A stretch of 64,000 nucleotides of DNA. Origin: Candidatus Colwellbacteria bacterium CG10_big_fil_rev_8_21_14_0_10_42_22 (GTDB taxonomy: Bacteria; Patescibacteriota; Minisyncoccia; UBA6257; Colwellbacteraceae). The notes under the pieces were generated by a model that made no database searches, was not told the origin of the DNA, and saw only the letters and a list, made by a program, of their open reading frames with translations. The position numbers and the translations under genes were made by a program. This document shows positions 22,326-50,773 of the stretch, one piece after another; position 1 is the first letter of the stretch, and the number at the start of each line of letters is the position of its first letter. The stretch spans positions 17,456 to 81,455 of the forward strand of contig PFAH01000005.1 of assembly GCA_002773725.1 (NCBI GenBank). Direction: 5' to 3'.

Positions 22326-22354
22326 TGGCGGAGGGGGAGGGATTCTTCCCTCTC
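22326..22354 (-). pseudogene. tRNA-Ser 3'-end fragment (T-arm remnant + CCCCTCC acceptor strand + G + CCA); inverted copy of the 3' end of tRNA-Ser(UGA) at 24057..24074
   Basis: Minus-strand reads GAGAGGGAAGAATCCCTCCCCCTCCGCCA; 18 nt (GAATCCCTCCCCCTCCGC) are identical to the tRNA-Ser(UGA) 3' end, but no 5' half is present. Confidence 0.45.
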
Positions 22355-22430
22355 GGCCCAACTCTCCGGATTGGTTGCCGGGAGCAATCCGCCGAAACTT
22401 TAGTGTAGGCGGAGAACCCTCGAGGCAGAG

Positions 22431-22636: not shown

Positions 22637-22664
22637 GTTCTTTAATAAAAATGCTTTTTAATAC

Positions 22665-23099
22665 TTATTTTTGCAAGTTGTTAAATTCTCCTGCGAAATA
22701 GTCTCGAGCAATTCTAATAAAAAAAAGAGAGGGGTTAGCGTTCAGAACATCTTCAAGATTGTTGGCTATTTCGAAGCCCTGCCCTTCATATACTTCGAGC
22801 TTAGACTCATCTACGTTTTCGACCAAGAAACAATATAAATCATTATCCTCTCCGTCTACCTCCTTTGTTCGCTCATATTTCTTTACAAATATCAGGTCTT
22901 CCTTATTAAGATTTAAATTTGTTTCTTCGTTTATCTCCCGAAGAGCTCCTTTCGAAGGGGTTTCTCCCAATTCAATGGTGCCTCCAAACGTAGTGGCTTT
23001 TCCGGGGTTTGTTATGTTCGGCTTGTTGTCGCGACGTTGAAGAATGATGCGCTTGTTACGATTGGTTAATAATATCTCTGCACTTGGCCTATTTCTCAT
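22665..23099 (-). CDS. NUDIX hydrolase
   Basis: Nudix box GGTIELGETPSKGALREINEETNL; start moved to the internal MRNRP because the upstream extension would overlap tRNA-Ala. Confidence 0.75.
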   Translation of the reverse strand: MRNRPSAEILLTNRNKRIILQRRDNKPNITNPGKATTFGGTIELGETPSKGALREINEETNLNLNKEDLIFVKKYERTKEVDGEDNDLYCFLVENVDESKLEVYEGQGFEIANNLEDVLNANPSLFFIRIARDYFAGEFNNLQK

Positions 23100-23103
23100 G
23101 ATG

Positions 23104-23174
23104 TGGACCCGGGGGGAATCGAACCCCCAACTCATCCATGCCATGGATGTGTGTTACCGTTATACCACGGGCCC
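23104..23174 (-). tRNA. tRNA-Ala (anticodon GGC) with G3:U70 identity pair
   Basis: Acceptor GGGCCCG/CGGGTCC with G3-U70, anticodon stem CATCC/GGATG with loop ATGGCAT, T-arm GGGGG TTCGATT CCCCC; D-stem has one mismatch. Confidence 0.65.
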
Positions 23175-23984: not shown

Positions 23985-24073
23985 GGAGGGGTGGCTGAGT
24001 GGATGAAGGCACCAGTCTTGAAAACTGGCATGGGGTTTACGCTCCATCGAGGGTTCGAATCCCTCCCCCTCCG
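23985..24073 (+). tRNA. tRNA-Ser (anticodon UGA), type II
   Basis: GGAGGGG acceptor, GCT-GAGTGGATGAA-GGC D-arm, anticodon stem CCAGT/ACTGG with loop CTTGAAA, long variable arm, T-arm GAGGG TTCGAAT CCCTC, then CCCCTCC-G. Confidence 0.8.
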
Positions 24074-24164
24074 CAGTGACAACCTAGTATCGGAGCTGAC
24101 CCGAGAGTCCTGATGAATTGAAGGTTTTGCGTTATCCTTCTATTAGTAAAAGTTTATATCCCAT

Positions 24165-25799
24165 ATGCCAGATTTATCCAACAAAGAACATATGGATCGG
24201 CTCAAGAAGTTCTCGCAGAAGATTAGTCGAGAGTCTTCTATACCCAAGAAATTAGTTGTTGCTGGGCCTGGTGCCGGTAAGACAAAATCTTTTAAAGCAT
24301 TATTGGATGCGCAACCTGCGGATAGTGGGGTGTTGGTATTAACTTTTCTGGGGAATTTAAAGAGGGAGTTGGAGAGGGATCTTGGGCATGCATCGTCAGT
24401 GTTCACGTTCCACGGGTACTGCCATCACTTACTCAGGAAATATGCCGTACTTCGGAGAGGATTAAGTAATGACTTTTTCTACTGTCCAGATTCCCTAGAA
24501 ATAATTAGAGAGGACTGGAAAGTCTTGAATAATGGTGAACCCCCGGACTTTATTTCTCCTCTCCGTTCAAATTTGAAGAACGAACTAACAGAGTTCTACT
24601 TAGACCGTAGTGATTACTACGATGCAATTGGTTTCGACGACTCTATCTTCAGGATTTATCACTCCCTTGCAAGCGAGCCGGAGATTGACTTGTCATACGA
24701 CCTGATACTCATCGATGAATTCCAGGATTTCAATAAACTTGAATCTGATTTTGTCGAGCTGATAAGTAGCCTTGGCCCAATAGTAATTGCGGGGGATGAC
24801 GACCAAGGTTTATACGAAGATAGGTTAGCAAGCCCAAAACATATAAGTGATCTGTATTTGGCGGCAGAATACAAGAACTATGAACTCCCGTACTGCACAC
24901 GGTGTACAAAAGTTATTGTTGATAGTGCAAATAAATTTATGCAAGAGTGCGAAGCCAGAAATATTATTAAGAATAGGATTCCGAAAAAGTTTGAATACTG
25001 CCCCCCGATCAAAGAGATTGATAGCAAACAATATACCTTCATCGAGGTTGTAGAAACATCAGTACAAAGTGGGTCAGTGAATTACTTTGGTCGTTACATT
25101 GAAAGAGAGATCAGAAGTATTCTGCCGGACGATATTGCCAAGTCTCGTAGCGAGGGATTTCTGACTGCATTAATTATCGCCTCTAATCCGTTCCGGCGAG
25201 CTATTGAGGACCACTTTCGGAGTAACCCCGACATTGAGTTGCAAAGCTCCAAGAATGATTTTGAGCCAGTAGATAGAGATACCGCTATAAGGAAGCTCGC
25301 TGACTATCCGAAATCAAATCTATGGTGGCGATTCATTCTCTCGTACGATAAACCTGAGGGCTGGCAGGAGATAGTGAAAGGCAGTACCTCAAAAGATGCG
25401 CTTATTGGACTCGTTCCCGATGAATTCAGAAATTCTGTTTTAGAAGAAGTAAGGGGTCTACGATCACGAGATAGAGCAGATAAAACACCCCAGCCAATAG
25501 ATGAGACAAAGCCCTTAGTAAAAATAGTGACCTTTGAAGGATCAAAGGGGCTTTCTGCTTCGCATGTTTTCATAGCTGGAATGCAAGACGGTACGCTCCC
25601 CAGGAATCCTAAAGAGCCGAGTCATATTGACGCAAAGAAGTTCTACGTTGCACTTACGCGCACTAGGAAGCATTGCCATATTCTTTTCTCAAGAAACTTA
25701 GGAGGTTACAATAATGGCAAACCATCAATCTTTCTCGACTGGATAGATGACGGTAATAAACGAAGTTTGTACGCAGACAAAACATACTTTAATAATTAG
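24165..25799 (+). CDS. UvrD/Rep-like superfamily 1 DNA helicase (compact, 544 aa)
   Basis: Walker A VVAGPGAGKTKSF, motif II LILIDEFQDFN, C-terminal motif VI YVALTRTRKHCHIL; it is the first gene after tRNA-Ser(UGA). Confidence 0.7.
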   Translation: MPDLSNKEHMDRLKKFSQKISRESSIPKKLVVAGPGAGKTKSFKALLDAQPADSGVLVLTFLGNLKRELERDLGHASSVFTFHGYCHHLLRKYAVLRRGLSNDFFYCPDSLEIIREDWKVLNNGEPPDFISPLRSNLKNELTEFYLDRSDYYDAIGFDDSIFRIYHSLASEPEIDLSYDLILIDEFQDFNKLESDFVELISSLGPIVIAGDDDQGLYEDRLASPKHISDLYLAAEYKNYELPYCTRCTKVIVDSANKFMQECEARNIIKNRIPKKFEYCPPIKEIDSKQYTFIEVVETSVQSGSVNYFGRYIEREIRSILPDDIAKSRSEGFLTALIIASNPFRRAIEDHFRSNPDIELQSSKNDFEPVDRDTAIRKLADYPKSNLWWRFILSYDKPEGWQEIVKGSTSKDALIGLVPDEFRNSVLEEVRGLRSRDRADKTPQPIDETKPLVKIVTFEGSKGLSASHVFIAGMQDGTLPRNPKEPSHIDAKKFYVALTRTRKHCHILFSRNLGGYNNGKPSIFLDWIDDGNKRSLYADKTYFNN

Positions 25800-27124
25800 C
25801 TCATGTCTCCTAAAGAAATCTGCATGTTCTGGTAAACAAGCCTACTCCTCAAATTTGCCAGTAAATCTCGCTTCTCACTAACACTCCCTTCTCTGAGCAA
25901 ATACTTCGCATAGGTCTTGAGGTCTATGTCATCTGTGTTTGCTTCCTGCTCGCCATTACCCAAGACAGCGTTTTGGAATTTGTTGAATCTCTTTACCTCC
26001 TCCTGCAACTTCATCTTCATTCCTAACTCATTGATATTTAGTTCATCAACAATCTTTAGTAATTCTTTAATTAGCTCCCCCTCACGAATGTATTTGTTCT
26101 TGCAGTACCTGTCTCTCCCTCGCGTACACCCATAGTAGACATACTTAGCAGTAGTTCCATCTCGCAATTTCTTATATTTCTCTTCGGCCGTTATACCAGA
26201 ACCACATAATCCACAAACCATAAGCTTCGTGAAGGCAAACTCTTTGTTTTCTCGCGTAATCTGGTCGCGTTTCAGATGTGCCTGCACTTTCTCAAATAAT
26301 TCCTGGTTGATAAGGGGCTTGTGTTTCCCTTGATACCAGTTGCCACTCTCTCGCGGATACTCAAAGGTCCCATAGTAGAAAGAATTCTGAAGTGTTCTAT
26401 AGATGCCACTTAATGTGAGCGGCTTGTTTCCTCTCGTCTTAAAGTTCATCTCAAATCGGAGCCAGTGATCCACTTTCCTCCCACTCCACATCTCATACGC
26501 TACTTTCTCGAACATCTGCTTCACGATTGGTGAACGTACAGGATCAATGACTACGTGGCCCTTCTTATCCATGCGATTTTGATTGAGATATCCCAATGGA
26601 GCCACTGTCGGCCAGAGACCCATCTCGCATCGTGTTCGCAATCCTCGTTTAACGTTAATGCCTCTATGGTCATTCTCTAGCTTAGCTTGCGAGCCGAGAA
26701 TCATAAGAAGAAACTTCTCATTTGGGTTGTCTGTAAATCTTTGTCCGTACGTCCGTATTTCGAGAAGCAGCTTCTGGTCCATCAAATCCACAATCGCTCC
26801 AAGGTCCCCAGCGTTCCTGCTCAACCTATCTGGTGCCCACGTTAAAATACCGTTGAATTTCTCCTGGCGAATATCTTCAAGTAGCTCATTAAAGATGATG
26901 CGTTGCCCAGTCTCCTTTGCAGAATGGCTCTCACGCTTCATTTCTACTATCTCTAAGCCCTCTTTCTCTGCGAGTTGGAGCATCTCCTTAACCTGTGATT
27001 CTATCGACAAAGCCTGTCTTTCTTCAGACTCAGATGACTTGCGAGCATATAGGCAGTATTTAACTTTCTCTCGAATCTCTGTGGGGGTAGTCCCCGGACG
27101 TTCTGTTACGGCTGTGTCATCCAT
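25796..27124 (-). CDS. large serine recombinase (resolvase/invertase-type catalytic domain, recombinase domain, zinc ribbon, coiled coil)
   Basis: N-terminal YARKSSESEERQALSIESQ with the catalytic Ser, C-terminal CGLCGS...YYGCTRGRDRYC zinc ribbon, 442 aa. Confidence 0.85.
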   Translation of the reverse strand: MDDTAVTERPGTTPTEIREKVKYCLYARKSSESEERQALSIESQVKEMLQLAEKEGLEIVEMKRESHSAKETGQRIIFNELLEDIRQEKFNGILTWAPDRLSRNAGDLGAIVDLMDQKLLLEIRTYGQRFTDNPNEKFLLMILGSQAKLENDHRGINVKRGLRTRCEMGLWPTVAPLGYLNQNRMDKKGHVVIDPVRSPIVKQMFEKVAYEMWSGRKVDHWLRFEMNFKTRGNKPLTLSGIYRTLQNSFYYGTFEYPRESGNWYQGKHKPLINQELFEKVQAHLKRDQITRENKEFAFTKLMVCGLCGSGITAEEKYKKLRDGTTAKYVYYGCTRGRDRYCKNKYIREGELIKELLKIVDELNINELGMKMKLQEEVKRFNKFQNAVLGNGEQEANTDDIDLKTYAKYLLREGSVSEKRDLLANLRSRLVYQNMQISLGDMS

Positions 27125-27187
27125 ATATACATGAATGACACACCTTCACGGGGCGTCCAGAGAGCCTAGTTGGTAACTTGTAGGTAA

Positions 27188-28663
27188 TTAGATCTTGTCC
27201 ATTTTACCAACTGCCCACGCACTCGTTCTTGCTTCGATTGCCGCGGTGACTGCTATCACAAGCGCATCCACTAAATCATCGTGCCTTTCTGTTCCGAAGC
27301 CGATTAATTGTTCGATGAGTTTTTCGCACCCTTCCATAGGGAATAGAACACGTCCTGATTTAATCCACGCAGAAATCCCTATAAGCCGGGTGCGTTTGTC
27401 CTGTGTTCCTATTTTCACCCCTTTAGCTGGGAAACCGTCCTGTGCAAGTTGCTGTGGGAGGGAGCGTTGATATGCCACATCCTCTACAAGAGCTTCAACT
27501 GGTTTTCCGTCACCGAGCATCGTTGCGTAGTACTTCTCCTCATCGAGAGTTGTTGGAAAATCTATTCTCTTATTGATTGGGTGAGGATGAACATACACCA
27601 CTCGTTGTTTGTCGTGACCGAAGAGAGATACGCCAACTATAGCAGTATAGTCGGCTGTTTCGCGTTCGGAGATAGCAAGATCTATTCCCATCTTTGTCCA
27701 GCGGTATTGGTATCCCTCACGAGGGGGCATCGCATCGTAGTGTTGAATCCATTCCCGCTTAATGACTTGATCTCCAGGAGGGACGATCACCAAAAGAAAT
27801 TCTCTCTTCCAAGCCTCCATACTCCCAATTTTCTTGCGTTCAATCTCAAGCGATTCCTTGTCAGGATATTTGCCAAGCCAGAGGGACTTGCCGTTATCAT
27901 CAACTACTGGATGTGTTCTGAAGATTCCAGTGAGCCGACCATCTTGGATTTCTCTCTCTAGGCGTTTTAGAAGTGAATCTTCGTGGAGGAGGTTGCCAAT
28001 GACTATCATCTTTGTGTTTTGGTCTCCAGCGGGAAGAATATCGCCCTTAAACTTCTGGTATGTCTTATCACGCCCTTCCTGGGTGCGTGTCGACTCTAAA
28101 TCTTCTACATCATCAACAACGATGAGGTCAGGACGATACTGCTTATGTTTCACGCCACGAATACGCTGATCAATTGAAAGAAAGACTATCTTCGCGTCAT
28201 ACCAAGGGAGGTAGAGGGTGTAGTTACCCCATTCATCGCTTTCTTCTTTGAATGGTCCCATATCTCGCCTCAAGAGACTGTTATCTTCTAGCTCTCGTTT
28301 AAGGTTCATGAAGCTGTACTTTGACTGGTGCTGAGTGTCATTGATGACGACCACAAACTTCTTTTTTAGTCTTCCAATAATTGCCCATATAGGGAGAGAG
28401 AGTGAGCAGATGGTGGTCTTCCCGGATCCACGAAATGCTACTGTAACCAGAAAGGAAACCTTCTCATCTCCCGTTAGAGACAAGAGTTCTTTCTGGAAGT
28501 TCGCTGTGGAGTGAGTTACGTGATCTCGCAGATAGATGTGAAAGAACCAAAAGTGACTCTCTCTACCAAGAATTCTGCGGAACGCAGGCTTCTTTATGGC
28601 TCTATCAATTATTGCTTTGAGAACTCCTTCTTTATTCATCTTCTTCATCGTCTTTCGGCTCAT
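27188..28663 (-). CDS. phage terminase large subunit (ATPase + RNaseH-like nuclease)
   Basis: Walker A FRGSGKTT, Walker B LIVVDDVED, C-terminal nuclease acidic residues (GIDLAISE...DDLVDAL). Confidence 0.7.
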   Translation of the reverse strand: MSRKTMKKMNKEGVLKAIIDRAIKKPAFRRILGRESHFWFFHIYLRDHVTHSTANFQKELLSLTGDEKVSFLVTVAFRGSGKTTICSLSLPIWAIIGRLKKKFVVVINDTQHQSKYSFMNLKRELEDNSLLRRDMGPFKEESDEWGNYTLYLPWYDAKIVFLSIDQRIRGVKHKQYRPDLIVVDDVEDLESTRTQEGRDKTYQKFKGDILPAGDQNTKMIVIGNLLHEDSLLKRLEREIQDGRLTGIFRTHPVVDDNGKSLWLGKYPDKESLEIERKKIGSMEAWKREFLLVIVPPGDQVIKREWIQHYDAMPPREGYQYRWTKMGIDLAISERETADYTAIVGVSLFGHDKQRVVYVHPHPINKRIDFPTTLDEEKYYATMLGDGKPVEALVEDVAYQRSLPQQLAQDGFPAKGVKIGTQDKRTRLIGISAWIKSGRVLFPMEGCEKLIEQLIGFGTERHDDLVDALVIAVTAAIEARTSAWAVGKMDKI

Positions 28664-29057
28664 CCGGAACAGCTAAAAGAAGCGCCTGTTTTAAGAGTTT
28701 CGCATCCTCTTCGGATAGCTCAATTTCCTGCCCGACCTTGCCTGTGATGTGCAGTTTCGGTGAGTACGCAGGATGTCTATTCTGCAACCACAATCGGATG
28801 GCTGAAACGTTCTCGTTTTGGATTGCTGAAATGAGCTTGCTCTCAGCCAGATCGTTTAGCCGTTCGAGACCCTCTACTATCGCCCTATCTGTCGCCTGTG
28901 CAAACTTTGGGTCATCTTTCCTCCAACGATAAAAGGATGTCCTCCCAATACCACATTTAGAACACGCAACTTGGATAATTGGTGTTATCTTCAGCTGTTC
29001 GATCATTTTCTCCTTCTGTCGTTCCTGCTTCCTCTCTATTGTCTTATCTTTAGTCAT
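28632..29057 (-). CDS. HTH DNA-binding protein, terminase small-subunit-like
   Basis: 141 aa, HTH (CSKCGIGRTSFYRWRKDD), immediately upstream of and overlapping the terminase large subunit, acidic C-terminal tail. Confidence 0.4.
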   Translation of the reverse strand: MTKDKTIERKQERQKEKMIEQLKITPIIQVACSKCGIGRTSFYRWRKDDPKFAQATDRAIVEGLERLNDLAESKLISAIQNENVSAIRLWLQNRHPAYSPKLHITGKVGQEIELSEEDAKLLKQALLLAVPDEPKDDEEDE

Positions 29058-30393
29058 GATTAATTTTCTTAGCTTTTTTACCGGTAAGTCGCTCCCACCG
29101 GTTCTTTATTACCTCCGCATACGTTGGGACTAACTCCATCATGTTGCATCGGCGATTTAGTTTCTCGGCAACTATAATTGTTGAACCGCTACCTCCGAAT
29201 AAATCGATTACAAGGTCTCCACGCTTTGTTAGAACCTTCATGTATGGGAGAAGAACCTCCACCGGTTTGGTCCCAAAAATTATCGACTGTTGTGAACTTT
29301 TCTCGTCAGCTGCATTGAAGGATATGAAGTCTGTGGGTTGGACTTTCTTGCCCTTCCGATAGCTTTCCCAGGTGGGTTTACCAGATGTAGCAAACAATGC
29401 ATTCTCGTACTCGCTTTGCAAAAATTCATCTGATTCAGGCTCAATATTTAGTTCAACATTTCCTTTAGTCCCGACCAAAGCAATATCAGTTTTATTGAAG
29501 AACTTATATTTAGCTGCGAAGCCCTGTACACGATTCGGGAGGTGCCACGTTATCGTGTTTCTGTATCGCCAGTGTTTTTCGAGCTCTGTCCAAATGACTT
29601 TCAGGTTCTTAGGGTTCTCGAAGACCATTATTGAGAAGTCTTCTTTTTGAATCTGCGCTACATTAGCCATCCACTTTTCCGTGAAATCTGGCGGAAGAAC
29701 GTCTGTCTCAAGGTATTTACGGTCTCTCCTGAGACCGAATCCTTCTGTTGCCTTGCCATGCTTCTTCTTGCCTGTCAGATATGAAAGCAGGTACGGCGGG
29801 TCCACCATACATAAATCCGCTTTCTCTCCATTCATTAGCCTCAGGACATCTTTCTCTAGAGTGCTGTCTCCGCACATTAGGCGATGTTTGCCAAGCTGCC
29901 AGACATCACCCTTTTTCACTTCAATCTTTGTGATGTTCAACTTCTCCAATTCTTTCTGGATGTCGAATTCTTCTGGGCTGTCTTCAATACCGAAGACATC
30001 ATCTAACTCCTCACTTGTGAATCCAATCTCCGAGAGCACATCTTCGTCGAACTCTGCAAGGAGTTGGAAGTCCCACTCTCCTTGGTTGCGGTTAAGCCTC
30101 AGGTTTAGCTCGCGCTCCTTCTCAAGATCCTCTATGTGGAGATAGATGACGGGCACATTTTTTACCCCCATTTCCTCTAGGGCCTTCACTCTCATGTGTC
30201 CGCCGATTATCACTTGCTCCCTTCCCGGTGCGTTATTTACCAAGATCGGATCTACGACTCCGTATCTCTTTAGCGATGTTTTAAGTTGCTCCATATCCTC
30301 TTTTTTGTGTTTACGAGGATTGTATGGTGCTGGTTTAAGTTCCTTTATAGGAACTTGTACGATCTTAAGATCGTCTGGGTTTATTTTGCTCAT
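29050..30393 (-). CDS. ParB-like nuclease domain fused to N6-adenine/N4-cytosine DNA methyltransferase (phage-type orphan MTase)
   Basis: N-terminal ParB motif VIIGGHMRVKAL; MTase motif IV MVDPPYL and motif I DLFGGSGSTIIVAEKL (beta-class order). Confidence 0.8.
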   Translation of the reverse strand: MSKINPDDLKIVQVPIKELKPAPYNPRKHKKEDMEQLKTSLKRYGVVDPILVNNAPGREQVIIGGHMRVKALEEMGVKNVPVIYLHIEDLEKERELNLRLNRNQGEWDFQLLAEFDEDVLSEIGFTSEELDDVFGIEDSPEEFDIQKELEKLNITKIEVKKGDVWQLGKHRLMCGDSTLEKDVLRLMNGEKADLCMVDPPYLLSYLTGKKKHGKATEGFGLRRDRKYLETDVLPPDFTEKWMANVAQIQKEDFSIMVFENPKNLKVIWTELEKHWRYRNTITWHLPNRVQGFAAKYKFFNKTDIALVGTKGNVELNIEPESDEFLQSEYENALFATSGKPTWESYRKGKKVQPTDFISFNAADEKSSQQSIIFGTKPVEVLLPYMKVLTKRGDLVIDLFGGSGSTIIVAEKLNRRCNMMELVPTYAEVIKNRWERLTGKKAKKINHD

Positions 30394-30395
30394 GA

Positions 30396-30794
30396 TTATT
30401 TATTCTTTTGTTTTTTACTTTTTGATTTTTCCGGTTGGTGCCCGGCAAGACTGAGAAATAGTCGGACATCGCTGGCGTTTCCTTTACCGGAGGCAACTTT
30501 CTCGTACAAACCGCCCATAATGTCTGGCGTATGCTCTCGCATCCACTCCTGCAAGAATTGCCATACCAGTGGCCAGAATTCTTCGTGTTTCTTCCAGTCC
30601 GTTAGGGTGTCTTGGTTTACTTTTACTCCGATCTGATCAGCGAATTCCTTCTGCGTTTTTGGCTCGCGGAGCCATTGAGGGAGCGCACACCACCTAGCAA
30701 ATTCGACGAATTCTTGGACTCGTTTAACACCTGGGATAGCAGGAAAAGAATCGGAGTGAATCCGAGTTAGCTGTACGTTTTTGTTTTTACCCAT
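30396..30794 (-). CDS. phage-associated hypothetical protein (first gene of the minus-strand packaging operon)
   Basis: 132 aa, basic C-terminus, 3-nt gap to the ParB-MTase gene; no recognisable motif. Confidence 0.35.
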   Translation of the reverse strand: MGKNKNVQLTRIHSDSFPAIPGVKRVQEFVEFARWCALPQWLREPKTQKEFADQIGVKVNQDTLTDWKKHEEFWPLVWQFLQEWMREHTPDIMGGLYEKVASGKGNASDVRLFLSLAGHQPEKSKSKKQKNK

Positions 30795-30841
30795 CTTTTT
30801 TAAGTAATTGGTTTATTTCGACTTCAGTTCAAACAAAAACA

Positions 30842-30932
30842 CCGACTCTATATAGAGTCGGCATCTGGAAAAGAAAAAAGCTTCGAATCCAGACAATAAT
30901 CTATATAGATTTATATTGTCTTGATTCGAAGC
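30842..30932. promoter_or_regulatory. two palindromic elements in a divergent intergenic region: a 20-bp perfect palindrome (30842..30861) and a ~53-bp near-perfect palindrome (30880..30932)
   Basis: CCGACTCTAT|ATAGAGTCGG is perfect. GCTTCGAATCCAGACAATA...TATTGTCTTGATTCGAAGC has 19-bp arms with one mismatch around an AT-rich core. Both lie upstream of the minus-strand operon start (30794) and before the plus-strand defence operon. Confidence 0.4.
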
Positions 30933-31378
30933 CCTTCCTCACGTTTCCTTTGTGCACGATGGCTCGGAAGCGATTGCAGTCTTTCTTCGGATCTACTGAA
31001 CCTCACTTTTCTCTCTTCTGAATGGCTATGATAGGCCAGGGAGACGAGTGTGTTCTGCCTCAACGGTGTATTTGTAGAACTATCCATAATATACGCCTTA
31101 GTTAGACTATGTGTCAAATGTTGATAACCCGCTTCGCAGAACCCAACGATTAAGCTAGGGTGCCATAGACCAGGAGAAGACTCTTCTGGTAATATGAGTT
31201 TAACAACTGAATAGCCTAACCCTTCCGATTTGGTAGGTATGGCACTAAAGCCGTTGCAGGCATCAAGCTCCTCGTCGGGAGCACCTGCAACGGTCATACG
31301 GGGAAACTCGTGTGGGTGGCTTCGGCCATCGCCTGGCGGGGAGCTTTATGTTCCAGGCCAGGAGAAACCGTTGCAGGT

Positions 31379-32434: not shown

Positions 32435-32488
32435 AATGACTCTAAAAAATTCCTTGCTTCAACCCCGCCAAGTGGGCATAATCTTGAT

Positions 32489-34711: not shown

Positions 34712-35325
34712 TTTTTATGAAAATTTTGGTCAATTTTTACGCAAACGTAACAGAAGGATCTATTAATGACTTAATCCAGTTCATTACAGTTAAGCTTGCA
34801 CAACAAAACCCAGAAAAACCAATAGATGAGATTATAATTCAGATTTCTAGCTCTGGAGGATCTTCTGACCATGGATTACTTGCGTATAATTTTTTAAAAC
34901 AGATTAGCATTCCAAAGACCACCATAGGTATGGGGAACGTAGATAGCGCAGCCATTATGATCTTCTTAGCAGGAGATAAGCGTTTGGCTATGCCGAGTTG
35001 TAGGTTCGTTCTCCATGAGGCTATTGCAACGATAGGCGGTCAATTCACTGCGACTAAGCTTGGTGAGATGTCGAGGTTGATACAAAGGATTACGGACGAT
35101 TACGTAGAAGTGGTTATAAAAGTAGTTGAAGGCAAAAAAGAATATATCACCAAAGAGGTGAAGAAAGGTTCGGTCCTATCTTCTAACGAAGCTAAAAAAA
35201 TGAAACTTGTCTCCGATATTTTAGAGAAACCATATTTAAGCGAGATGAAAAATTTAGATATTCTATTGATTAATAATCCCAGACAACCGGTTCAACAAAA
35301 GCCAGAGAAAAAGTCAGAAATTTAA
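34708..35325 (+). CDS. ClpP-family (S14-like) serine protease homolog embedded between mod and res
   Basis: Alignable to ClpP: [18 protein letters not shown] ~ NPEKDIYLYINSPGG; [21 protein letters not shown]...RFVLHEA ~ ICMGQAASMGAFLLTAG...RVMIHQP, with Ser and His retained. The ATG overlaps the mod stop (ATGA) and the stop is 2 nt before the res ATG. Confidence 0.6.
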
Positions 35326-35327
35326 TT

Positions 35328-38000
35328 ATGGCATTACATAAAGATTTTCCTAAATCACCTCACGTAATACTAGATCCAGATACTCGTTGGTTTCCTGCAG
35401 ACGAAACTTTACGAGAGAAAGGATATGAAAAACTACTTCCACCCCTTGTTCATATACTTCGTAAGGAGGTAAAGGAATGGCGAGACAAAAACTATAAAGG
35501 GATAAGCGATACTAGTCGTGCTTTGTTACGTTGGTGGTTCCAGGCAGAGCATCCAGTAGAAACACCAGATGGCACAGTCAATTTTCAGTACTATTTTGCT
35601 CAACGAGAGGCAGTTGAAACTGTAATTTATCTATATGAAGTAGCAAAGGTAAAAGATAAATATGACTTGATTCGCTACGACAGTTCTGGAGCAGTTTCTT
35701 CAAGTATGTTTACTGAAGACTGGTTAAGAATGGTTATTAAGATGGCAACAGGGACTGGAAAAACAAAAGTAATGAGCTTACTAGTCGCGTGGAGCTATTT
35801 TCATAAGATGTATGAAGAAGGATCAAACTTAGCTAGGAATTTTCTTCTTATCACGCCAAACATTATTGTGCTCGATCGTATTAAAAGTGATTTCGAGGGA
35901 TTAAAGATATTCTGGGAAGATCCTATTTTACCAGATAATGGCTTTGAGGGGCAAAACTGGAAAGACGATTTTCAGATGACCATTCATATGCAGGATGAGA
36001 TAAATACTGTTCGTAAGACTGGAAATATTTTCTTAACGAATATTCACCGTGTCTATAACAGCAAGGACAATGCGCCTAGCTCCGATGACGATAATACAAT
36101 GGAGTATTTTTTGGGAGATAAGCCCGTGGCTAAAACGGGTGATTCAAAAGTAAACCTTGGTCAAATCGTACGAGATATTGATGAACTTATGGTTATTAAT
36201 GACGAAGCACATCATATTCATGACGAACGACTTGCTTGGTTTAAGTCTATTGAGGACATTAGTAATCGGATGAAAATGAAGGATAAGTTTTTATCCCTGC
36301 AGATTGATGTCACGGCAACTCCGAAACACACTAATGGATCGATTTTTGTACAGACAATCTCCGACTATCCTTTAGTTGAAGCAATCTACCAGGACGTTGT
36401 GAAACATCCCGTTCTTCCTGATTCTGCTAGTAGAGCCAAGCTACAAGAGCACAAAAGCTCAAAATTCACAGAGAGATATAAGGATTATATCCATCTAGGA
36501 TACCTTGAGTGGAAGAAGGTGTATGACGAGCACAAAAAGCTTGGCAAAAAAGCTGTTTTCTTTGTTATGACCGATGATACTAAAAACGGCGATGACGTAG
36601 CAGAATATCTTGAAACTACTTATCCAGAATTTAAAGATGCAATTCTTGTTATTCATACAAAAAACAATGGTGAAATTGCCGAGACTGTAACGGGCAAGAA
36701 AGAAGAAGAATTAAAAGAGCTTAGAAAAGCCTCAAATGAAATTGATAATTTGGAAAGCCCGCACAAAGCGATTGTCTCGGTTCTAATGCTTAAAGAAGGC
36801 TGGGATGTAAAAAATGTAACCACAATTGTAGGGCTTCGTCCGTACTCTTCCAAAAGCAATATTCTTCCAGAACAAACTCTTGGTCGAGGGCTTAGGCGAA
36901 TGTATAGAGATTCCGACGTAACTGAGTATGTAAGTGTTGTGGGGACTGACGCCTTCATGGACTTTGTGGAGTCTATCAAGAGTGATGGGGTTGAGCTTGA
37001 AAAGAAAAAGATGGGAGAAGGCTCTGAACCAAAAGCTCCTCTGATAGTTGAGATTGATAACGAAAATACTAAAAAAGATATTGAGAAGCTGGACATTCAG
37101 ATTCCAGTCCTTACCCCTCGCATATACAGAGAATACAAGAATATTTCTGACTTGGACGTAAGCAAGTTCCCTCACAAGAAAATCAAGATAAAAGAATTCA
37201 GCGAAAAGGAGAAAAGGGAAATTGTATTTCGTGACATTACTTCGGGAGAGATAACGCACGCAACAGAACTTGATAGCAACTTCATACCAAATTATCAAAG
37301 CGTTATTGGTTACTTCGCTCAAATCATCAGAAAGGAGCTCAGGTTAGTCGGAGGACACGACGTCTTATACGAAAAAGTAAAAGAATTTGTAATTAATCAT
37401 CTCTTTGATAAAAAGGTTGATTTAGAAGACCCGAACACCCTACGTAACTTATCTGAGCTCGAAGCAACAAAAACAATAATTGAAACTTTCAAGAAAGAGA
37501 TAAACGAGCTTACTGTTGTTGATAAAGGTGAGGCTGAAATTCGTGATTATATAAAGATTAGTAAATCTCGTCCGTTTGTTATTAAGGAGCAGGGATTCAT
37601 TGTCCCAAAGAAGAGTGTATTCAACAAAATTGTTGGAGATAGCCATTTCGAACTACAATTCGCCAACTTCCTTGAAGAGTGTGACGATATTATCTCGTAT
37701 GCAAAAAACTATTTCGCTGTTCACTTCAAGATCGATTACAAAGATGCAGATGGGAATATCAGAGACTACTATCCTGATTTCTTTGTAAAGGTATCAGAAA
37801 AAGAGATTTATATTATAGAGACTAAAGGACGTGAGGACTTAGACGATGTAGAGAAAATAAAAAGACTGTATCAGTGGTGTGATGATATAAATGCAGTACA
37901 GAATAAAGTTAAATTCACAGCTCTTTATGTGAAACAAGAAGCTTATGAGAAATATAAGCCATCAAGTTTTGCTGAGTTGGTGAAGAATTTCGTCAAATAA
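35328..38000 (+). CDS. res: type III restriction enzyme Res subunit (SF2 helicase-like ATPase + C-terminal PD-ExK nuclease)
   Basis: Walker A MATGTGKTKV, DEAH box MVINDEAHHI, helicase C motifs, C-terminal YYPDF...IYIIETKGRED nuclease motif. Confidence 0.85.
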   Translation: MALHKDFPKSPHVILDPDTRWFPADETLREKGYEKLLPPLVHILRKEVKEWRDKNYKGISDTSRALLRWWFQAEHPVETPDGTVNFQYYFAQREAVETVIYLYEVAKVKDKYDLIRYDSSGAVSSSMFTEDWLRMVIKMATGTGKTKVMSLLVAWSYFHKMYEEGSNLARNFLLITPNIIVLDRIKSDFEGLKIFWEDPILPDNGFEGQNWKDDFQMTIHMQDEINTVRKTGNIFLTNIHRVYNSKDNAPSSDDDNTMEYFLGDKPVAKTGDSKVNLGQIVRDIDELMVINDEAHHIHDERLAWFKSIEDISNRMKMKDKFLSLQIDVTATPKHTNGSIFVQTISDYPLVEAIYQDVVKHPVLPDSASRAKLQEHKSSKFTERYKDYIHLGYLEWKKVYDEHKKLGKKAVFFVMTDDTKNGDDVAEYLETTYPEFKDAILVIHTKNNGEIAETVTGKKEEELKELRKASNEIDNLESPHKAIVSVLMLKEGWDVKNVTTIVGLRPYSSKSNILPEQTLGRGLRRMYRDSDVTEYVSVVGTDAFMDFVESIKSDGVELEKKKMGEGSEPKAPLIVEIDNENTKKDIEKLDIQIPVLTPRIYREYKNISDLDVSKFPHKKIKIKEFSEKEKREIVFRDITSGEITHATELDSNFIPNYQSVIGYFAQIIRKELRLVGGHDVLYEKVKEFVINHLFDKKVDLEDPNTLRNLSELEATKTIIETFKKEINELTVVDKGEAEIRDYIKISKSRPFVIKEQGFIVPKKSVFNKIVGDSHFELQFANFLEECDDIISYAKNYFAVHFKIDYKDADGNIRDYYPDFFVKVSEKEIYIIETKGREDLDDVEKIKRLYQWCDDINAVQNKVKFTALYVKQEAYEKYKPSSFAELVKNFVK

Positions 38001-38015
38001 AACGATCGTTTAGCC

Positions 38016-40841
38016 ATGTTTAATTCTAAAAAGAAAAAAGAGGACAAGATTGACCAAGAGCCTTTTGAGGTTTTAGTAGATAAACCCTTAGAAGATGGAG
38101 AAAAAGATAGATTTGGGCATAGAGAGATATCCAATAGTCTTTTGAAAATAATAAAAAAGTCACCACGCCCCTTTAACATAGGCGTTTACGGACAATGGGG
38201 TGTGGGGAAGAGTACGATATGTAAGCTTGTGCAGAATGAATTAGAGCAAGATGATGATTATAAAGTTATTTATTTTGATACTTGGAAATATGAGCGAGAT
38301 TCGTTTCGTAGGCAATTCTTAATTACATTAGATGAAGAATTGGAACTTGAGCTTCATTATAAAGAGAGACTAAATCAATCCCTTTCTGTCCCCGTTAATT
38401 TGAAGTGGCGCGAGAAATTAAAACTGGTCTTTGGTGATTTATTGTTTAAGTCTTTATCAATTCTTGTAATAATTGTATTAACTCTACTCATTTTTCGGCA
38501 ATCTATACTGCCCTTAATTATGTCGTCTGATTATCTTGAGCTTTCAGAACGGATAGTTGATTTTGGCGTTATCGGTGCTTTAATATCTTTCATTCTAAAT
38601 TCAATTAAACAGTTTACTACTACAAAGACGGTGCATAGAACTGATTCCGCTGAAGGATTCGAGGACCACTTCACTAAAATTTTAGATAAAGTCAAAACAA
38701 AAAACCTAGTGGTGATAATAGACAACCTCGATCGTTTATCAAGTAAAAATGCCGTAGGTCTTTTGGGGGATATTAAAACTTTCTTATCGAATGAGAAGTA
38801 TGGCTTGGATAAACATAAGGTAAGAAACAAAACTTTATTTATTGTTCCTTGCGACAATAAAGCTATCAATGATCAGCTTGTTAAGCAGTATGGGAAACGC
38901 TTCGATTCAGAGGAATATCTAAGAAAATTTTTTAATCACTCGATACAGATACCCAAGTTTCTTGATATTGAGTTGGACGACTTTATTGTTGAGAAGTTGA
39001 ATGACACAAAGATCGAAGTATTTGAGAATAACCTAGAACTCGCTTTTGTCTTGAATTATGCATTTCGAAATAATCCTCGGGAGATTATTCAGTTTGTAAA
39101 CTCTTTGATATCACTTTATCTATTAGCAAGAGAGAGGGGTATATCTCGAGTTATCGAGAAGGATAGAATTGCTTTTCTTGCAAAGGTTTTGGTAGTTAGG
39201 GTCAAATGGCCCAAACTTTATAGCGTTATTGAAGACAGAATATTAAGAACTTCAGATAAATTGGATGAAATAAGTTCACAACTCGATGATAGTTCGGAGA
39301 GTAAGGAACTCACGACATTTCTGGAGTCAACGCCTCACATAAATGATAAGGAATATGAAGACATCTACTTCTCATTGAGGCAAAGTCCCGCACAAAAAGC
39401 GATTCCAGAGTGGGGAAGTTTTGTGATCTCCCTACAGGATGGTCGAAGCAAGGATGTTGAAAGAATATACCTCGATACTAAGCCAGAGAAATTAATAGAA
39501 TTGAGTAAACTCCTTGGTTATTACTGCAGACGTAATAAGAGAAACGAGAACTTACTATTTAATATATTCTTAACATTTCACCCAATAGTAAAAACTGAGG
39601 ATTTGAAGTACTTTCAAAACGTTTTTCTTTTGGCATTTCAAGAAATAAATATTCAAAAATTTGCTGATTCTATAGATAACCTCAAATATTCTTCTATATT
39701 TGCGGATGGCCTCAAGGATATATCTCCATCAAATAAAAAAGAATTCAGTAGACACTTGGTTTCTTTGATAGAGCGACTAACTGCCATAGATAATATAGAG
39801 CGAGAAAAGGTAAGTTCTATAAAAGAAGCTTTCGAGATAGCAAGCAGTGATAAAAATAAAGATAACTTTAGTTTTCTGTTGAGTAAATTATCTCAAGCAA
39901 AAAAACAGTTTTTTAAACAATTGAAGTATCAGGAATTATTTCCAGAGGTAGAAAAAGCCGAAAAATTTCGTAAGGATATATTAGACGATATTCTAGATAT
40001 CCTAACTTCTCTGGGTCCGATAAGTAGCATACATTATGCGGTTGGCCTCGATCTTTTTGGTAATCTATTGCAATGGGCTCCAATTACTGAAGATGATGAA
40101 ATAAGATTTAGCACTCTTGAGAGAAGTTTAGATTTTCTATCAAAATCTACACCACCAAGACCAGCAGACGACACACTGGGCCAGACACTAAGTACATTTA
40201 CTACGCGTATATCTACTTGGTATCAAGCCAATAAAACAACCGAAGAACGTGCTTTGTGTATAAAGATTTTTCAGAAAATTGATCTAGATATTAATCCGAA
40301 CAAAGAACCAAAATCCTCTATACGGGCATACATCTCAGACATTAATAATAAACCAAATGTAATTATTGATGTTTTAGGTAAAGATTTTTTAACCAAAGAC
40401 GGCATTGGTCGGGACGCTTTGATAAATAGAAGTGGAAATTCTTTAGACTTGCTCAATGAGTTGCCTATGAAAACAAGATTAACGAAGGGTGAAAAATCTA
40501 CTATTTTTAATAGTCTTCTAGGAAAAGAGGAAGAGGCACTTTCATTCCTTGAATATGTTAATTATAGTATCCCATCTGAAAACAATGGGAATCAGAACTT
40601 TTTAAAAAACATTGTCCTGAGAATGATAAATGCGAGTAGTTTTTCCGATACGGGGCTCTTGAGAAGATGGCTGGACGCTATTGGCAAATTGGGTGTTCAA
40701 TCGGACCAGGTTGATCCTTTTGTCCAAAAATTGAGACAGACACGTACTTTATCAGATGAACATAAACAAGTCGTTTTAGATTTTGTCAGTAAGAACTCTA
40801 GAGAGTTCGGCGACTTGGTAGTAAAAGAGTTTCAAGAATAA
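38016..40841 (+). CDS. KAP-family P-loop NTPase with inserted transmembrane helices
   Basis: NIGVYGQWGVGKST (Walker A) followed by the KAP hallmark YFDTWKYERD, two TM helices inserted in the NTPase domain, Walker B VVIIDNLDR; 941 aa. Confidence 0.8.
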   Translation: MFNSKKKKEDKIDQEPFEVLVDKPLEDGEKDRFGHREISNSLLKIIKKSPRPFNIGVYGQWGVGKSTICKLVQNELEQDDDYKVIYFDTWKYERDSFRRQFLITLDEELELELHYKERLNQSLSVPVNLKWREKLKLVFGDLLFKSLSILVIIVLTLLIFRQSILPLIMSSDYLELSERIVDFGVIGALISFILNSIKQFTTTKTVHRTDSAEGFEDHFTKILDKVKTKNLVVIIDNLDRLSSKNAVGLLGDIKTFLSNEKYGLDKHKVRNKTLFIVPCDNKAINDQLVKQYGKRFDSEEYLRKFFNHSIQIPKFLDIELDDFIVEKLNDTKIEVFENNLELAFVLNYAFRNNPREIIQFVNSLISLYLLARERGISRVIEKDRIAFLAKVLVVRVKWPKLYSVIEDRILRTSDKLDEISSQLDDSSESKELTTFLESTPHINDKEYEDIYFSLRQSPAQKAIPEWGSFVISLQDGRSKDVERIYLDTKPEKLIELSKLLGYYCRRNKRNENLLFNIFLTFHPIVKTEDLKYFQNVFLLAFQEINIQKFADSIDNLKYSSIFADGLKDISPSNKKEFSRHLVSLIERLTAIDNIEREKVSSIKEAFEIASSDKNKDNFSFLLSKLSQAKKQFFKQLKYQELFPEVEKAEKFRKDILDDILDILTSLGPISSIHYAVGLDLFGNLLQWAPITEDDEIRFSTLERSLDFLSKSTPPRPADDTLGQTLSTFTTRISTWYQANKTTEERALCIKIFQKIDLDINPNKEPKSSIRAYISDINNKPNVIIDVLGKDFLTKDGIGRDALINRSGNSLDLLNELPMKTRLTKGEKSTIFNSLLGKEEEALSFLEYVNYSIPSENNGNQNFLKNIVLRMINASSFSDTGLLRRWLDAIGKLGVQSDQVDPFVQKLRQTRTLSDEHKQVVLDFVSKNSREFGDLVVKEFQE

Positions 40842-40844
40842 TGT

Positions 40845-41951
40845 TTGATGAACTATCTAAAATCAAAGGGGTACTATTCTGACCTTTACGACCAAACGAC
40901 AGTAGAAAGATGTCGTTGGATAGAGAATTTCCACAAAGAATATAAAGCACCGAAGGCGGTAACTAAGGACGCATCCAAAGATGATTTAGAAAAGATTACC
41001 CGCATTACCCTCTATTACGACCTCCTCTTCACTACCGGTGAACGATATCTGAATAAAGAGAAAACAATCCAAGAATGGATTGAGCGAGACACAGCGAAAG
41101 ACGAACTATACAACTCCGCCGAGGCACCCGAGGGCATAAGATGTTTGACTTGTAGCAGTTCGATGACTGCAACATTTAAGGACCTACACAGCCCGGGGCT
41201 TGATGACGCTAAAGACAGGGTTTTTTTCATGTATGACTGTCCGAATAAATGTCTTCCGCGAAGGGCATTCTTTGATGACGGCGAGGAGTGGAAACCTAAA
41301 CCGCATCTTTGTCCTAAATGTGGAAGTGAATTGAAGTCTGATGACGAGCGCAAAGGAAACAAGATTATAACCACGGAGACTTGCGTATCGTGTAGCTATA
41401 AGAAGACAGACGAACTAGATCTGTCTCCCAAGAAAGAGAAAGTAGATAAGGATTTTGAAAAAGACAAAGCCCGTTTCTGCCTTACCGAAGAGAAAGGACA
41501 AGAATATATAAAGACTAAGGGGCAGCTCGAGGGAATGAAGCAGTTAGTAGATGAACTAAAAGAGCGAGATGAGAACAAGGACCTATATGATAAAGTTGCG
41601 AAACTCAAGAAGCTCACAATAGTTCAGTTGCAGAAAACCCTCGCCCCCGTTTTAGAAAAAAAAGGATACATAGACCTCTCTTTTGAGACACCCGAGATGG
41701 AACACGACGTTCGAGTAGCTTTTACCGTAAAAGACGGCAAGGACGGTAGAGAAGAGTACGACAGCCGTATGCAGCTCAAAAAGTCCATTGAGGGGGCTCT
41801 CAGGAGCACTAACTGGCATTTAATGAGCGATGGAGTCACTTATAGGCTAGGTATCCTTATGGGACGGTTAAGAGGCTACGAAAGAGAAGAAGACCTACTA
41901 AAGCTTGTTGAGCGACAGTCGACGGCATCAAAGGTGTCAATAAACCCTTAA
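40845..41951 (+). CDS. hypothetical protein with three C4 zinc-ribbon motifs; KAP NTPase partner
   Basis: CLTCSS...CPNKC, CPKCGSEL and CVSCS cysteine pairs; 4-nt gap after the KAP gene; no family assigned. Confidence 0.4.
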   Translation: MMNYLKSKGYYSDLYDQTTVERCRWIENFHKEYKAPKAVTKDASKDDLEKITRITLYYDLLFTTGERYLNKEKTIQEWIERDTAKDELYNSAEAPEGIRCLTCSSSMTATFKDLHSPGLDDAKDRVFFMYDCPNKCLPRRAFFDDGEEWKPKPHLCPKCGSELKSDDERKGNKIITTETCVSCSYKKTDELDLSPKKEKVDKDFEKDKARFCLTEEKGQEYIKTKGQLEGMKQLVDELKERDENKDLYDKVAKLKKLTIVQLQKTLAPVLEKKGYIDLSFETPEMEHDVRVAFTVKDGKDGREEYDSRMQLKKSIEGALRSTNWHLMSDGVTYRLGILMGRLRGYEREEDLLKLVERQSTASKVSINP

Positions 41952-42099
41952 AATGGAACATTCTCGAAAACCACGTTTTCATGTTCCGTTTGTTCCATTT
42001 GACCCCCGACCCACGAGCCTAAATTCGCTTCTGGAAACAGCCCCAAGAAACCCTTATACTGCCTCATAAGACTTGGTACCAGACCCGAGTCGCCCGCCA

Positions 42100-42173
42100 G
42101 GGCCCATGGTTCAATGGTAGAACACTGGTTTTGCATACCAGAGATCGGAGTTCGATTCTCCGTGGGTCCACCA
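42100..42173 (+). tRNA. tRNA-Ala (anticodon UGC), CCA encoded, G3:U70
   Basis: GGGCCCA acceptor (G3-U70), GTTC-AATGGTA-GAAC D-arm, anticodon stem CTGGT/ACCAG with loop TTTGCAT, T-arm CGGAG TTCGATT CTCCG, 3' TGGGTCC-A-CCA. Confidence 0.85.
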
Positions 42174-50771: not shown

Positions 50772-50773
50772 AA

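Follow-up and report, generated by a model that had tools for sequence, protein, structure and literature searches.

What lies between tRNA-Ser(UGA) and tRNA-Ala(UGC) in the genome of an uncultivated member of the Patescibacteria, Candidatus Colwellbacteria bacterium CG10_big_fil_rev_8_21_14_0_10_42_22, and can it move? The window analyzed here is a 64,000-nt stretch of contig PFAH01000005.1, and all coordinates follow its numbering. An original prediction had read the roughly 18 kb between the two tRNAs as an integrative element with defence cargo. This reading held, and its boundaries turned out to be right to the base: positions 24075–42093 are probably one integrative mobile element at the tRNA-Ser(UGA)/tRNA-Ala(UGC) junction, with a satellite-like mode of spread. 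We identified genes by Pfam, PHROG, PADLOC, and NCBIfam profile scans and tRNAs by ARAGORN and Rfam; contigs and loci retrieved for comparison carry L-numbers (L002–L180). Both tRNAs that had been said to bracket an accessory segment were recovered at the expected coordinates by ARAGORN and Rfam, and the profile scans confirmed the genes that had been named as well as the housekeeping flanks. The boundary features are as follows.

23985–24074, plus strand: tRNA-Ser(UGA) (ARAGORN; Rfam tRNA, 58.7 bits); its last base is the left boundary, and the island-bearing allele encodes no CCA.
24071–24074, no strand: left copy of the CCGC core, read from the sequence and fitting the contig ends; the attL crossover position is a prediction.
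24075–24164, no strand: left end of the element (putative P' arm), containing GACCCGAG at 24098–24105; L104 and L105 have a GACCCGA motif about as far from the tRNA.
41952–42097, no strand: right end of the element (putative P arm), ending in the right CCGC core at 42094–42097; it fits the start of L094 and aligns with the terminus of L151.
42100–42173, plus strand: tRNA-Ala(UGC) (ARAGORN; Rfam tRNA, 70.9 bits), the right flank and predicted B' side of the target site.

The same organism has been assembled independently several times, at 100% or 99.6–99.9% identity, and these assemblies break at the edges of the island. Three left-flank contigs (L089, L091, and L092), from JGI 3300025150 (the 50-kb L089), JGI 3300004210, and Logan SRR6240789, stop exactly at 24074, and a right-flank contig from 3300004210 (L094) begins exactly at 42094. 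The left part of the island is represented by a Logan contig (L002) that covers 24050–32005. A further contig, L090 (JGI 3300004209), comes from a strain that is 99.6% identical and continues past 24074 into 52 nt of unrelated DNA. Its allele reads ...CCGCCA followed by ATTTTCAC, with the sequence ...CCCTCCGC-CA-ATTTTCACTTTTTGTG... and onward CCGCCA-ATTTTCACTTTTTGTGAAATCG; nucleotides 1–52, placed at window position 24075 onward, give tRNA-Ser-CCA and then ATTTTCACTTTTTGTGAAATCGTAAGAAACAGCCTCGGCGCAAAGCGCCT, a third allele at the same site. This sequence was found nowhere in the window nor in any other retrieved locus, and the L090 junction had 0 matches in IMG/VR.

The left junction in the window reads ...CTCCGC|AGTGAC... 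and the right junction ...GTCGCCCGC|CAGGGCCC...; attL, read from the window, is ...CCCCCTCCGCAGTGACAACC..., and attR is ...GAGTCGCCCGCCAGGGCCCATGG.... From these, attB is predicted to be ...TCCCTCCCCCTCCGCCAGGGCCCATGGTTC... and attP ...CCGAGTCGCCCGCAGTGACAACCTAG.... A model empty site in which tRNA-Ser-CCA abuts tRNA-Ala (...CCCTCCGCCAGGGCCC...) predicts 24074 as the last base shared on the left and 42094 as the first base shared on the right. These are exactly the observed contig ends, from which we infer an insertion of 24075–42093 with a 4-nt CCGC core at each end. The contig breakpoints thus agree with an empty site of tRNA-Ser-CCA joined to tRNA-Ala, whose own sequence and crossover position are predicted from sequence. 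Because only three of the eight tRNA genes in the window encode CCA, the CCA itself argues weakly for this model. A direct repeat of the tRNA 3' end at the opposite boundary, for which the original prediction suggested a search, did not turn up at a length of at least 14 nt; the 4-nt CCGC is all that both boundaries have in common. Palindromes in the predicted attB and attP (CCCT...AGGG and GTCGC...GTGAC) were dropped, being not above chance when compared with random positions.

The tRNA-Ser-derived repeats that had been noted on the left side do not delimit the element: they are inverted relative to tRNA-Ser(UGA) and lie 1.4–1.7 kb outside the island. The fragments in question (22326–22345 and 22601–22636) were therefore not used as att sites. 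They form part of a nested tRNA-Ser-like arrangement on the minus strand (22326–22640), in which a 5' half (22636–22601) is followed by an atypical "tRNA-Ser(CGA)" (22520–22430). This tRNA is called by ARAGORN only; it falls below the gathering threshold of the Rfam tRNA model, its best match being tRNA-Sec at 38.7 bits (gathering 47), and it lies in an extended stem with 31-nt arms that are 81% complementary. A 3' fragment, GAATCCCTCCCCCTCCGCCA (22345–22326), comes 85 nt after it and equals the 3' end of tRNA-Ser(UGA) plus CCA. ARAGORN, when introns were allowed, built a chimeric tRNA at this site. The arrangement could be the scar left by an old integration, or else a tRNA gene of an unusual kind.

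The genes nearest the left boundary are a helicase and, on the minus strand, an operon whose recombinase, terminase, and methylase genes proved to be the core of a large family.

24165–25799, plus strand: UvrD-like superfamily 1 (SF1) helicase (Pfam UvrD-helicase, AAA_19, and UvrD_C; GajB-type hidden Markov model (HMM) matches); a variable accessory gene, not core.
25796–27124, minus strand: large serine recombinase (integrase) of 442 aa (Pfam Resolvase, Recombinase, and Zn_ribbon_recom; phrog_95 integrase, 1.3e-62), with the YARKSS catalytic motif.
27188–28663, minus strand: large terminase subunit TerL (phrog_38, 2.5e-67), with catalytic residues present; a member of the element-type TerL clade.
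28632–29057, minus strand: small terminase subunit TerS of the HTH_Tnp_1_2 type (Pfam and PHROG), kept in 50 of 53 related loci.
29050–30393, minus strand: fusion of ParB_N and N6_N4 methyltransferase (Pfam and PHROG), a core gene whose methylase family occurs in 52 of 53 related loci.
30396–30794, minus strand: 132-aa TerS-like or helix-turn-helix (HTH) protein, the first gene of the minus-strand operon (weak HTH_Tnp_1_2 and TerS PHROG matches).
30795–31212, no strand: divergent control region, known from consensus scans only and partly conserved in L180.

TerL has about 2,800 homologs, many of them from metagenome-assembled genomes (MAGs) of the Candidate Phyla Radiation (CPR). A single-sequence scan of IMG/VR returned no close TerL relatives, and an alignment-based scan was needed; together with the homolog contexts, it gave 77 TerL loci. 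In about 50 of these, with TerL 38–53% identical, the same order was found: (ParB-)methylase, TerS, TerL (sometimes duplicated), and then a serine recombinase. Homologs of the recombinase, at 44–71% identity, come after TerL in at least 35 related loci, directly (gap <400 nt) in 15 of 33 and otherwise behind inserted genes. Clustering of the open reading frames (ORFs) of 53 loci placed the methylase in 52, TerL in 51, TerS in 50, and the recombinase in 37, a count that includes many contigs that end early, while every other family occurred in six loci or fewer. The gene at 28632–29057, which had been described simply as a small HTH gene, can be specified as a TerS-type protein. The 132-aa protein has homologs at the same position in L103 (62%) and L151 (47%); as an HTH gene it is counted with the core, ahead of ParB-methylase, TerS, TerL, and the serine recombinase.

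Structural genes are absent from this core. Portal and major capsid queries from sister phages found no homolog in the element loci (624 kb) or the window, whereas among more distant TerL loci (35–43% identical) portal lies just downstream of TerL in all nine tested, one of which encodes a major head protein as well. A neighbour-joining tree put all 54 TerL proteins of the element type into a single clade, separate from the 21 of the phage type. The Walker A residue K82, the Walker B residues D184/D185/E187, and the nuclease residues D328/D463/D466 are invariant in the alignment (A1) and present in the window protein. The recombinase and packaging genes of the original prediction are therefore real, but they are the conserved core of a large CPR family without structural genes rather than prophage leftovers. 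A LexA-like S24 repressor was detected in only six related loci and not in the window.

Within this family, six loci (L114, L117, L118, L119, L130, and L159) carry two tandem, diverged TerL genes, about 44–47% identical to TerL of the window, that fall into two sub-clades of the element clade. About 50 IMG/VR contigs catalogued as viral genomes (loci L106–L159) are these elements without structural genes and not phages. On the minus strand of the divergent control region, a consensus scan found a promoter-like site (31117–31088, 11/12 consensus matches), and a strong 13-bp hairpin with a T-run (30866–30837) stands directly before the first gene of the core operon; the two may mark a short leader or a small RNA. 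A 19-nt inverted repeat was also observed at 30880–30932.

Movement of the family is seen directly in a sister pair. L104 and L105 carry the same element beside tRNA-Gln, with 9,800 bp at 99.89% identity, whereas identity falls to about 78% in the FtsX/FtsE flanks. The genes of the element are arranged as methylase, TerS, TerL, two cargo genes, recombinase, two small genes, and a UvrD-like helicase, and the helicase of the window has only motif-level similarity to the one at the same position in L104. The block of identity stops within tRNA-Gln at one edge and within the opening codons of the methylase gene at the other, which indicates that a discrete unit was moved or exchanged. Our searches found no near-identical copy of the window's own element elsewhere, so the evidence for horizontal transfer applies at the family level. 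The recombinase faces a tRNA 3' end within about 200 nt in six loci (L100, L103, L116, L132, L135, and L149), the same geometry as in the window, where the helicase is interposed; in two further loci it lies within 1 kb of a tRNA.

The opposite end of the element was located through its last gene.

40848–41951, plus strand: 367-aa zinc-ribbon protein (hyp368) with CxxC pairs, the far-end gene; homologs, and a GC content at third codon positions (GC3) of 0.47, as in the core genes.

This protein has no family match in Pfam, PHROGs, PADLOC, or NCBIfam, and its single-sequence structure model was unusable, with a predicted local distance difference test (pLDDT) score of 34. Its homologs, at 29–37% identity, stand divergent from the methylase operon in L124, L133, and L151. 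The 150 nt past its stop codon (41949–42099) can be aligned to the last 163 nt of contig L151, up to the contig end, with conserved blocks that include TTGGTAC and a terminal CCCGCCA. The position of the homologs and the aligned L151 terminus indicate that the 367-aa gene is the last gene of the element, and the 9.6-kb block from the LOOT RNA to the KAP NTPase gene is accordingly cargo between the far-end gene and the core operon. The zinc-ribbon gene had been counted with the defence operon; the homolog positions, the L151 alignment, and the GC3 value assign it to the far end instead. Two assemblies from different samples also break near the edges of the Mod-to-KAP part of the cargo (ERZ27293400 at 40775–40915; a Logan contig end at 32005), which is a hint at most.

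The composition of the island agrees with an origin different from that of its flanks, in part. Tetranucleotide distance to the flank profile was 0.24–0.27 within the island and 0.13 ± 0.01 outside, about a twofold difference, and GC content forms two blocks, 0.442 (24.1–31.2 kb) and 0.379 (31.2–42.1 kb), with flanks at 0.41–0.42. GC3 is 0.43–0.50 in the core genes, 0.47 in the last gene, 0.30–0.39 in the defence genes, and about 0.37 in the flanks. The shift in GC and codon usage that the original prediction proposed to look for was thus present in the tetranucleotide profile and GC content and missing from codon usage, which we dropped as a sign of foreign origin.

On these grounds, we propose that the large serine recombinase integrates and excises the element, with crossover in the 4-nt CCGC core, and that integration would divide an ancestral ...CTCCGC-CA-GGGCCC... 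site. A complete terminase in the company of no portal, capsid, tail, or lysis genes makes spread as a phage satellite most likely. After induction, the excised element would be cut and pumped by its own TerS/TerL into the procapsids of a helper phage, for which the related CPR phages that have portal and capsid genes beside a sister TerL are candidates. The ParB-methylase might pre-protect the transferred DNA. Several results weigh against this picture. Adjacency to a tRNA characterizes a subset of the family only, with a tRNA within 1 kb in five of the 28 loci that have enough sequence. Patterns for the empty site and for the circular attP junction gave 0 matches in IMG/VR, and the dyad symmetry of the predicted attB and attP (5/12) is no better than chance (P about 0.7). 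Synonymous codon choice of the island genes is not deviant, and only the tetranucleotide profile, GC, and GC3 differ. The genome and metagenome collections that were scanned held no close host relative for a presence/absence comparison. The families of the 53 loci include no conserved replication gene (primase or Rep), and the helicase is not conserved across them. Finally, no related contig was circular, no helper phage was identified, and no packaged form was seen.

Some of these same points would suit a decayed prophage, that is, a remnant of integrase and packaging genes beside an unrelated defence island that is fixed in the chromosome and no longer mobile. Structural genes are absent, the region falls into two blocks with GC contents of 0.442 and 0.379, codon usage is host-like, and neither the empty site nor a circular form appeared in the IMG/VR junction searches. 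However, one four-gene core in one order in about 50 loci, a monophyletic TerL clade, and intact catalytic residues are not the pattern that independent decay would yield. A fixed remnant also fits poorly with a sister element that two genomes share at 99.9% identity despite flanks at about 78%, with three assemblies that break at the junctions and another strain that has a different allele, or with the presence of hyp368 and a conserved non-coding end beyond the defence block. A defective prophage was rejected as a candidate, given this conserved architecture in about 50 loci and a search that found no structural or lysis remnants, and we consider the decayed-remnant account unlikely. We also weighed whether there is an island at all, or whether the region belongs stably to the chromosome of this lineage, with contig ends that are accidents of assembly. 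Such an account can point to the want of a close relative for a direct presence/absence test, but it would have to explain a base-identical breakpoint in three independent assemblies, a matching one on the other side, the different allele that L090 displays directly, a composition shift inside the region, and the mobility seen at the family level; we hold it to be extremely improbable.

Two further accounts concern what the terminase does. The region might be a packaging platform resident in the chromosome, of a lateral-transduction or gene transfer agent (GTA)-like kind, in which headful packaging starts in situ from an internal pac site without prior excision and the recombinase acted only in the original capture or in rearrangements. 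The terminase is complete and conserved where a replication module is not, defence and other cargo is always adjacent, and several loci have tandem TerL genes, all of which this account would accommodate. It is nevertheless improbable in our view: the L104/L105 block is discrete and was moved or exchanged as a unit, the variable region of the window is likewise discrete, and conservation of the recombinase comes close to that of the terminase. A platform of this kind would also depend on a helper for its capsid genes, a point at which it overlaps with the satellite model. Alternatively, the terminase/methylase module could be a defence device, kept for the benefit of the host, that interferes with the packaging of invading phages or methylates DNA. 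Defence genes surround the module in every case, and satellite TerS proteins are known to redirect packaging (PMC9618062). Full conservation of the TerL nuclease and ATPase residues, linkage to an integrase, and near-identical copies in divergent genomes point rather to self-transfer, although interference and self-packaging are not mutually exclusive; we regard a pure defence function as very unlikely. The integrative, satellite-like element therefore remains the reading that we prefer.

The cargo of this element comprises an RNA-led nuclease cassette, a variant restriction-modification (R-M) system, and a stand-alone NTPase gene.

31213–31378, plus strand: LOOT RNA, a putative 5' leader (Rfam RF03000 at 31213–31330, 83.2 bits against a gathering threshold of 46.4, model positions 1–121).
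31331–31358, plus strand: extra conserved hairpin after the LOOT model (alignment A3).
31379–32434, plus strand: NucS-like PD-(D/E)XK protein (PADLOC PDC-S11, 2.7e-17; NCBIfam NucS, 2.7e-6, below the curated cutoff).
32489–34711, plus strand: type III Mod methyltransferase (N6_N4_Mtase, 1.2e-45; PADLOC MTase_III, 8.6e-103).
34717–35325, plus strand: ClpP-like serine peptidase between mod and res (CLP_protease, 4.5e-21; PDB ClpP match, 1.4e-12).
35328–38000, plus strand: type III Res, a helicase with a C-terminal PD-(D/E)XK or TnsA-like nuclease (ResIII, RE_endonuc, and Tn7_TnsA-like_N; REase_III).
38016–40841, plus strand: KAP-family P-loop NTPase, QatA/PifA-like (KAP_NTPase, 2.2e-31; QatA and PDC-S20 HMM matches), a stand-alone defence candidate.

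Comparison of the loci shows that the defence cargo is exchangeable between elements. R-M systems of types I and III occur in members of the family, as do reverse transcriptases, and genes of the cyclic oligonucleotide-based antiphage signaling system (CBASS) stand beside related loci. The cassette of LOOT and nuclease gene lies between TerL and the recombinase in L103, L108, and L157, and upstream of the methylase operon in the window, L136, and L139. In L180, LOOT and the nuclease gene match those of the window at 79% nucleotide identity up to the stop codon (90% amino-acid identity), after which a different type III system and CBASS follow. Two such neighbouring CBASS operons were observed: one beside a related element (L105, 418–1955) with a CD-NTase and a Cap15-like effector, and one beside the related cassette (L180, 7027–10160) with SMODS, HORMA, a TRIP13-like AAA protein, and DUF6602.

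LOOT reportedly comes from the motif set of Weinberg et al. 2017. It is filed in Rfam as "Gene; sRNA" without a function in the Rfam table, and we found no paper in the literature that describes its function. The RNA in the window is a full-length match at 83 bits, and six further examples, in the loci below, bring the range to 64–93 bits: L103 (12544–12665), L136 (6663–6784), L139 (6985–7099), L157 (8442–8559), L108 (5520–5654), and L180 (299–418). In all seven loci it stands upstream of the homologous PD-(D/E)XK gene, and it was absent from the other loci scanned. The distance is always about 50–75 nt, with no terminator between. The PD-(D/E)XK gene had been placed in one operon with Mod and Res; the RNA that precedes it in seven of seven loci marks a separate cassette.

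A 10-nt copy (31368–31377) of the 5' strand of the LOOT long stem (31251–31260) ends one nucleotide before the ATG. Exact copies of 8–11 nt lie 0–5 nt before the ATG in four of the seven loci, and they change in step with the stem: CCGTTGCAGG, CCGTCCAAGGC, CCGTCCAA, and CCGCTACAGT. A covarying stem copy at the start codon is how a cis-regulatory leader behaves. It suggests mutually exclusive pairings that would expose or sequester the start region, and LOOT would be the 5' leader and translational switch of the nuclease gene, probably gating its translation. The protein belongs to a family of 1,888 homologs; the best 120 are 60–90% identical, none of them with a Pfam domain on record. Its AlphaFold2 (AF2) model reached a pLDDT of 76.5, with NucS (2vld) as the best PDB match (E 9e-3); the fold is NucS-like, and the NucS and PDC-S11 HMM matches are weak. 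The gene list of the original prediction needs one correction here: a 128-aa ORF on the minus strand (30911–31297) overlaps the LOOT RNA (31213–31330) and is called by no assembly's gene caller; it is probably not a real gene.

Mod and Res in one operon make up a type III R-M system of the EcoP15I type. The variant found here differs from that type by a ClpP-fold peptidase with intact catalytic residues that interrupts the operon between mod and res, an order that is kept in several CPR lineages. Res also matches the BPTD_3080 family of NCBIfam (2.5e-84, under the curated cutoff). Homologs of the ClpP-like protein number about 100, 44–78% identical and almost all from CPR; across 31 that were aligned, S77 and H100 never vary and D128 hardly does. 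In Colwellbacteria and WWE3 contigs, the ClpP-like gene lies just upstream of Res and Mod upstream of the ClpP-like gene (L098, 10001–10621; L100, 10001–10627), with one or two small genes between Mod and the ClpP-like gene in L098 and L100. Downstream of Mod-ClpP-Res, WWE3 has a distinct serine recombinase and the 3' end of a tRNA-Lys. The three genes are 55–78% identical between lineages, and the ClpP-like gene alone reaches 66–78%, while leucyl-tRNA synthetase (LeuRS) of this organism is at most 61% identical to that of any genome in the GTDB scan.

No paper describing a Mod-ClpP-Res operon was found in the literature. In one published case of restriction alleviation (PMC4231737), ClpXP degrades HsdR, the translocase-nuclease subunit of a type I system, and a naive host that acquires the restriction system is thereby spared damage to its unmodified chromosome. 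That case concerns a type I system and the ATP-dependent ClpXP of the host, whereas the peptidase here is dedicated, encoded in the operon, and without a cognate ATPase. By analogy, the ClpP-like peptidase perhaps controls Res levels by proteolysis when the system enters an unmethylated host. Two assignments to known defence systems were rejected. Gabija was set aside since the SF1 helicase gave GajB-type HMM matches but a gene for GajA (OLD-family nuclease) is missing; QatABCD was set aside on finding a partial QatA match of the KAP NTPase (108 bits; curated cutoff 600) and no QatB, QatC, or QatD genes.

Profile scans of the flanks gave housekeeping genes on both sides: LeuRS, a Mur ligase, a nucleoside triphosphate (NTP)-transferase, and a Nudix protein on the left, and a family 2 glycosyltransferase (GT2) and a P-type ATPase on the right. 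When GTDB species genomes were scanned with LeuRS, the best relatives came from CPR MAGs of the Parcubacteria type, with identity reaching 61% at most and a neighbourhood that was not conserved; a scan of JGI metagenomes with the 224-aa protein beside tRNA-Ser returned relatives of only 28–44% identity. The 159-aa Nudix ORF (22665–23174) overlaps tRNA-Ala(GGC) (23103–23174) at its 5' end, and in some assemblies the gene caller shortens it to 101 aa, which makes a start further downstream probable. In the right flank, a type IV pilus-like set unrelated to the island occupies 48542–55716 (PilM/FtsA-like, two T2SSE ATPases, T2SSF, and an N_methyl pilin).

Among known systems, the element works most like a phage satellite of the phage-inducible chromosomal island (PICI), virion-encapsidated integrative mobile element (VEIME), or tycheposon type, but it lacks a conserved replication module and adds TerL and the methylase to the core. 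With PICIs, including the Staphylococcus aureus pathogenicity islands (SaPIs), and marine VEIMEs, it shares an integrase, site-specific integration, a size of 5–20 kb, the absence of virion structural genes, TerS, and often defence genes. Some VEIME groups and PICI-like elements (PLEs) use serine recombinases (PMC9618062). It differs in carrying TerL in addition to TerS, which completes the terminase, together with a conserved (ParB-)methylase, in having no conserved primase/Rep or AlpA-type module, in its CPR/Patescibacteria host, and in that its dependence on a helper is a prediction. To our knowledge, definitions of the SatelliteFinder type (P4, PICI, capsid-forming PICI (cfPICI), and PLE) would not capture this family. 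Tycheposons of Prochlorococcus (Hackl et al. 2023) are reportedly also cargo-carrying integrative elements at tRNA genes that form variable islands, some with large serine recombinases; they are said to be defined by recombinase and replication genes, rather than by a terminase and methylase core, and they belong to a different phylum. SCCmec (CcrA/CcrB) and fdxN/XisF likewise are cargo islands that a large serine recombinase mobilizes through a very short core, and the best NCBIfam matches of our recombinase are CcrB (4.1e-31) and XisF, all with scores far below the family cutoffs. SCCmec targets orfX/rlmH, whereas the target here is a tRNA 3' end and a terminase module is carried.

A plain genomic island would be ordinary; the interest of this locus lies in the family, the host phylum, and two oddities of the cargo. 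We found no paper that describes elements with a terminase and a serine recombinase in CPR. As a tentative proposal, which we judge possible rather than probable, these elements would be the first phage-satellite family of CPR/Patescibacteria, unusual and minimal in conserving only a methylase, a complete terminase, and a large serine recombinase, as well as parasites of CPR-phage capsids, and the main shuttle of defence systems in this group, with LOOT as a riboswitch-like switch and Mod-ClpP-Res as a system with proteolytic self-control. LOOT as the leader of a NucS-like nuclease gene and an R-M variant with an embedded ClpP-fold peptidase are leads in their own right, and serine recombinases of such compact size (about 440 aa) that target tRNA ends may serve genome engineering. 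The roughly 50 IMG/VR viral contigs that are such elements may inflate counts of viruses with CPR hosts. Much of bacterial diversity belongs to the ultra-small CPR bacteria, whose genomes are tiny, whose CRISPR systems are few, and whose mobile elements are poorly known. A widespread, compact element with a terminase and an integrase and no capsid would widen the range of phage-satellite architectures known so far, and it would explain how defence systems move among CPR lineages.

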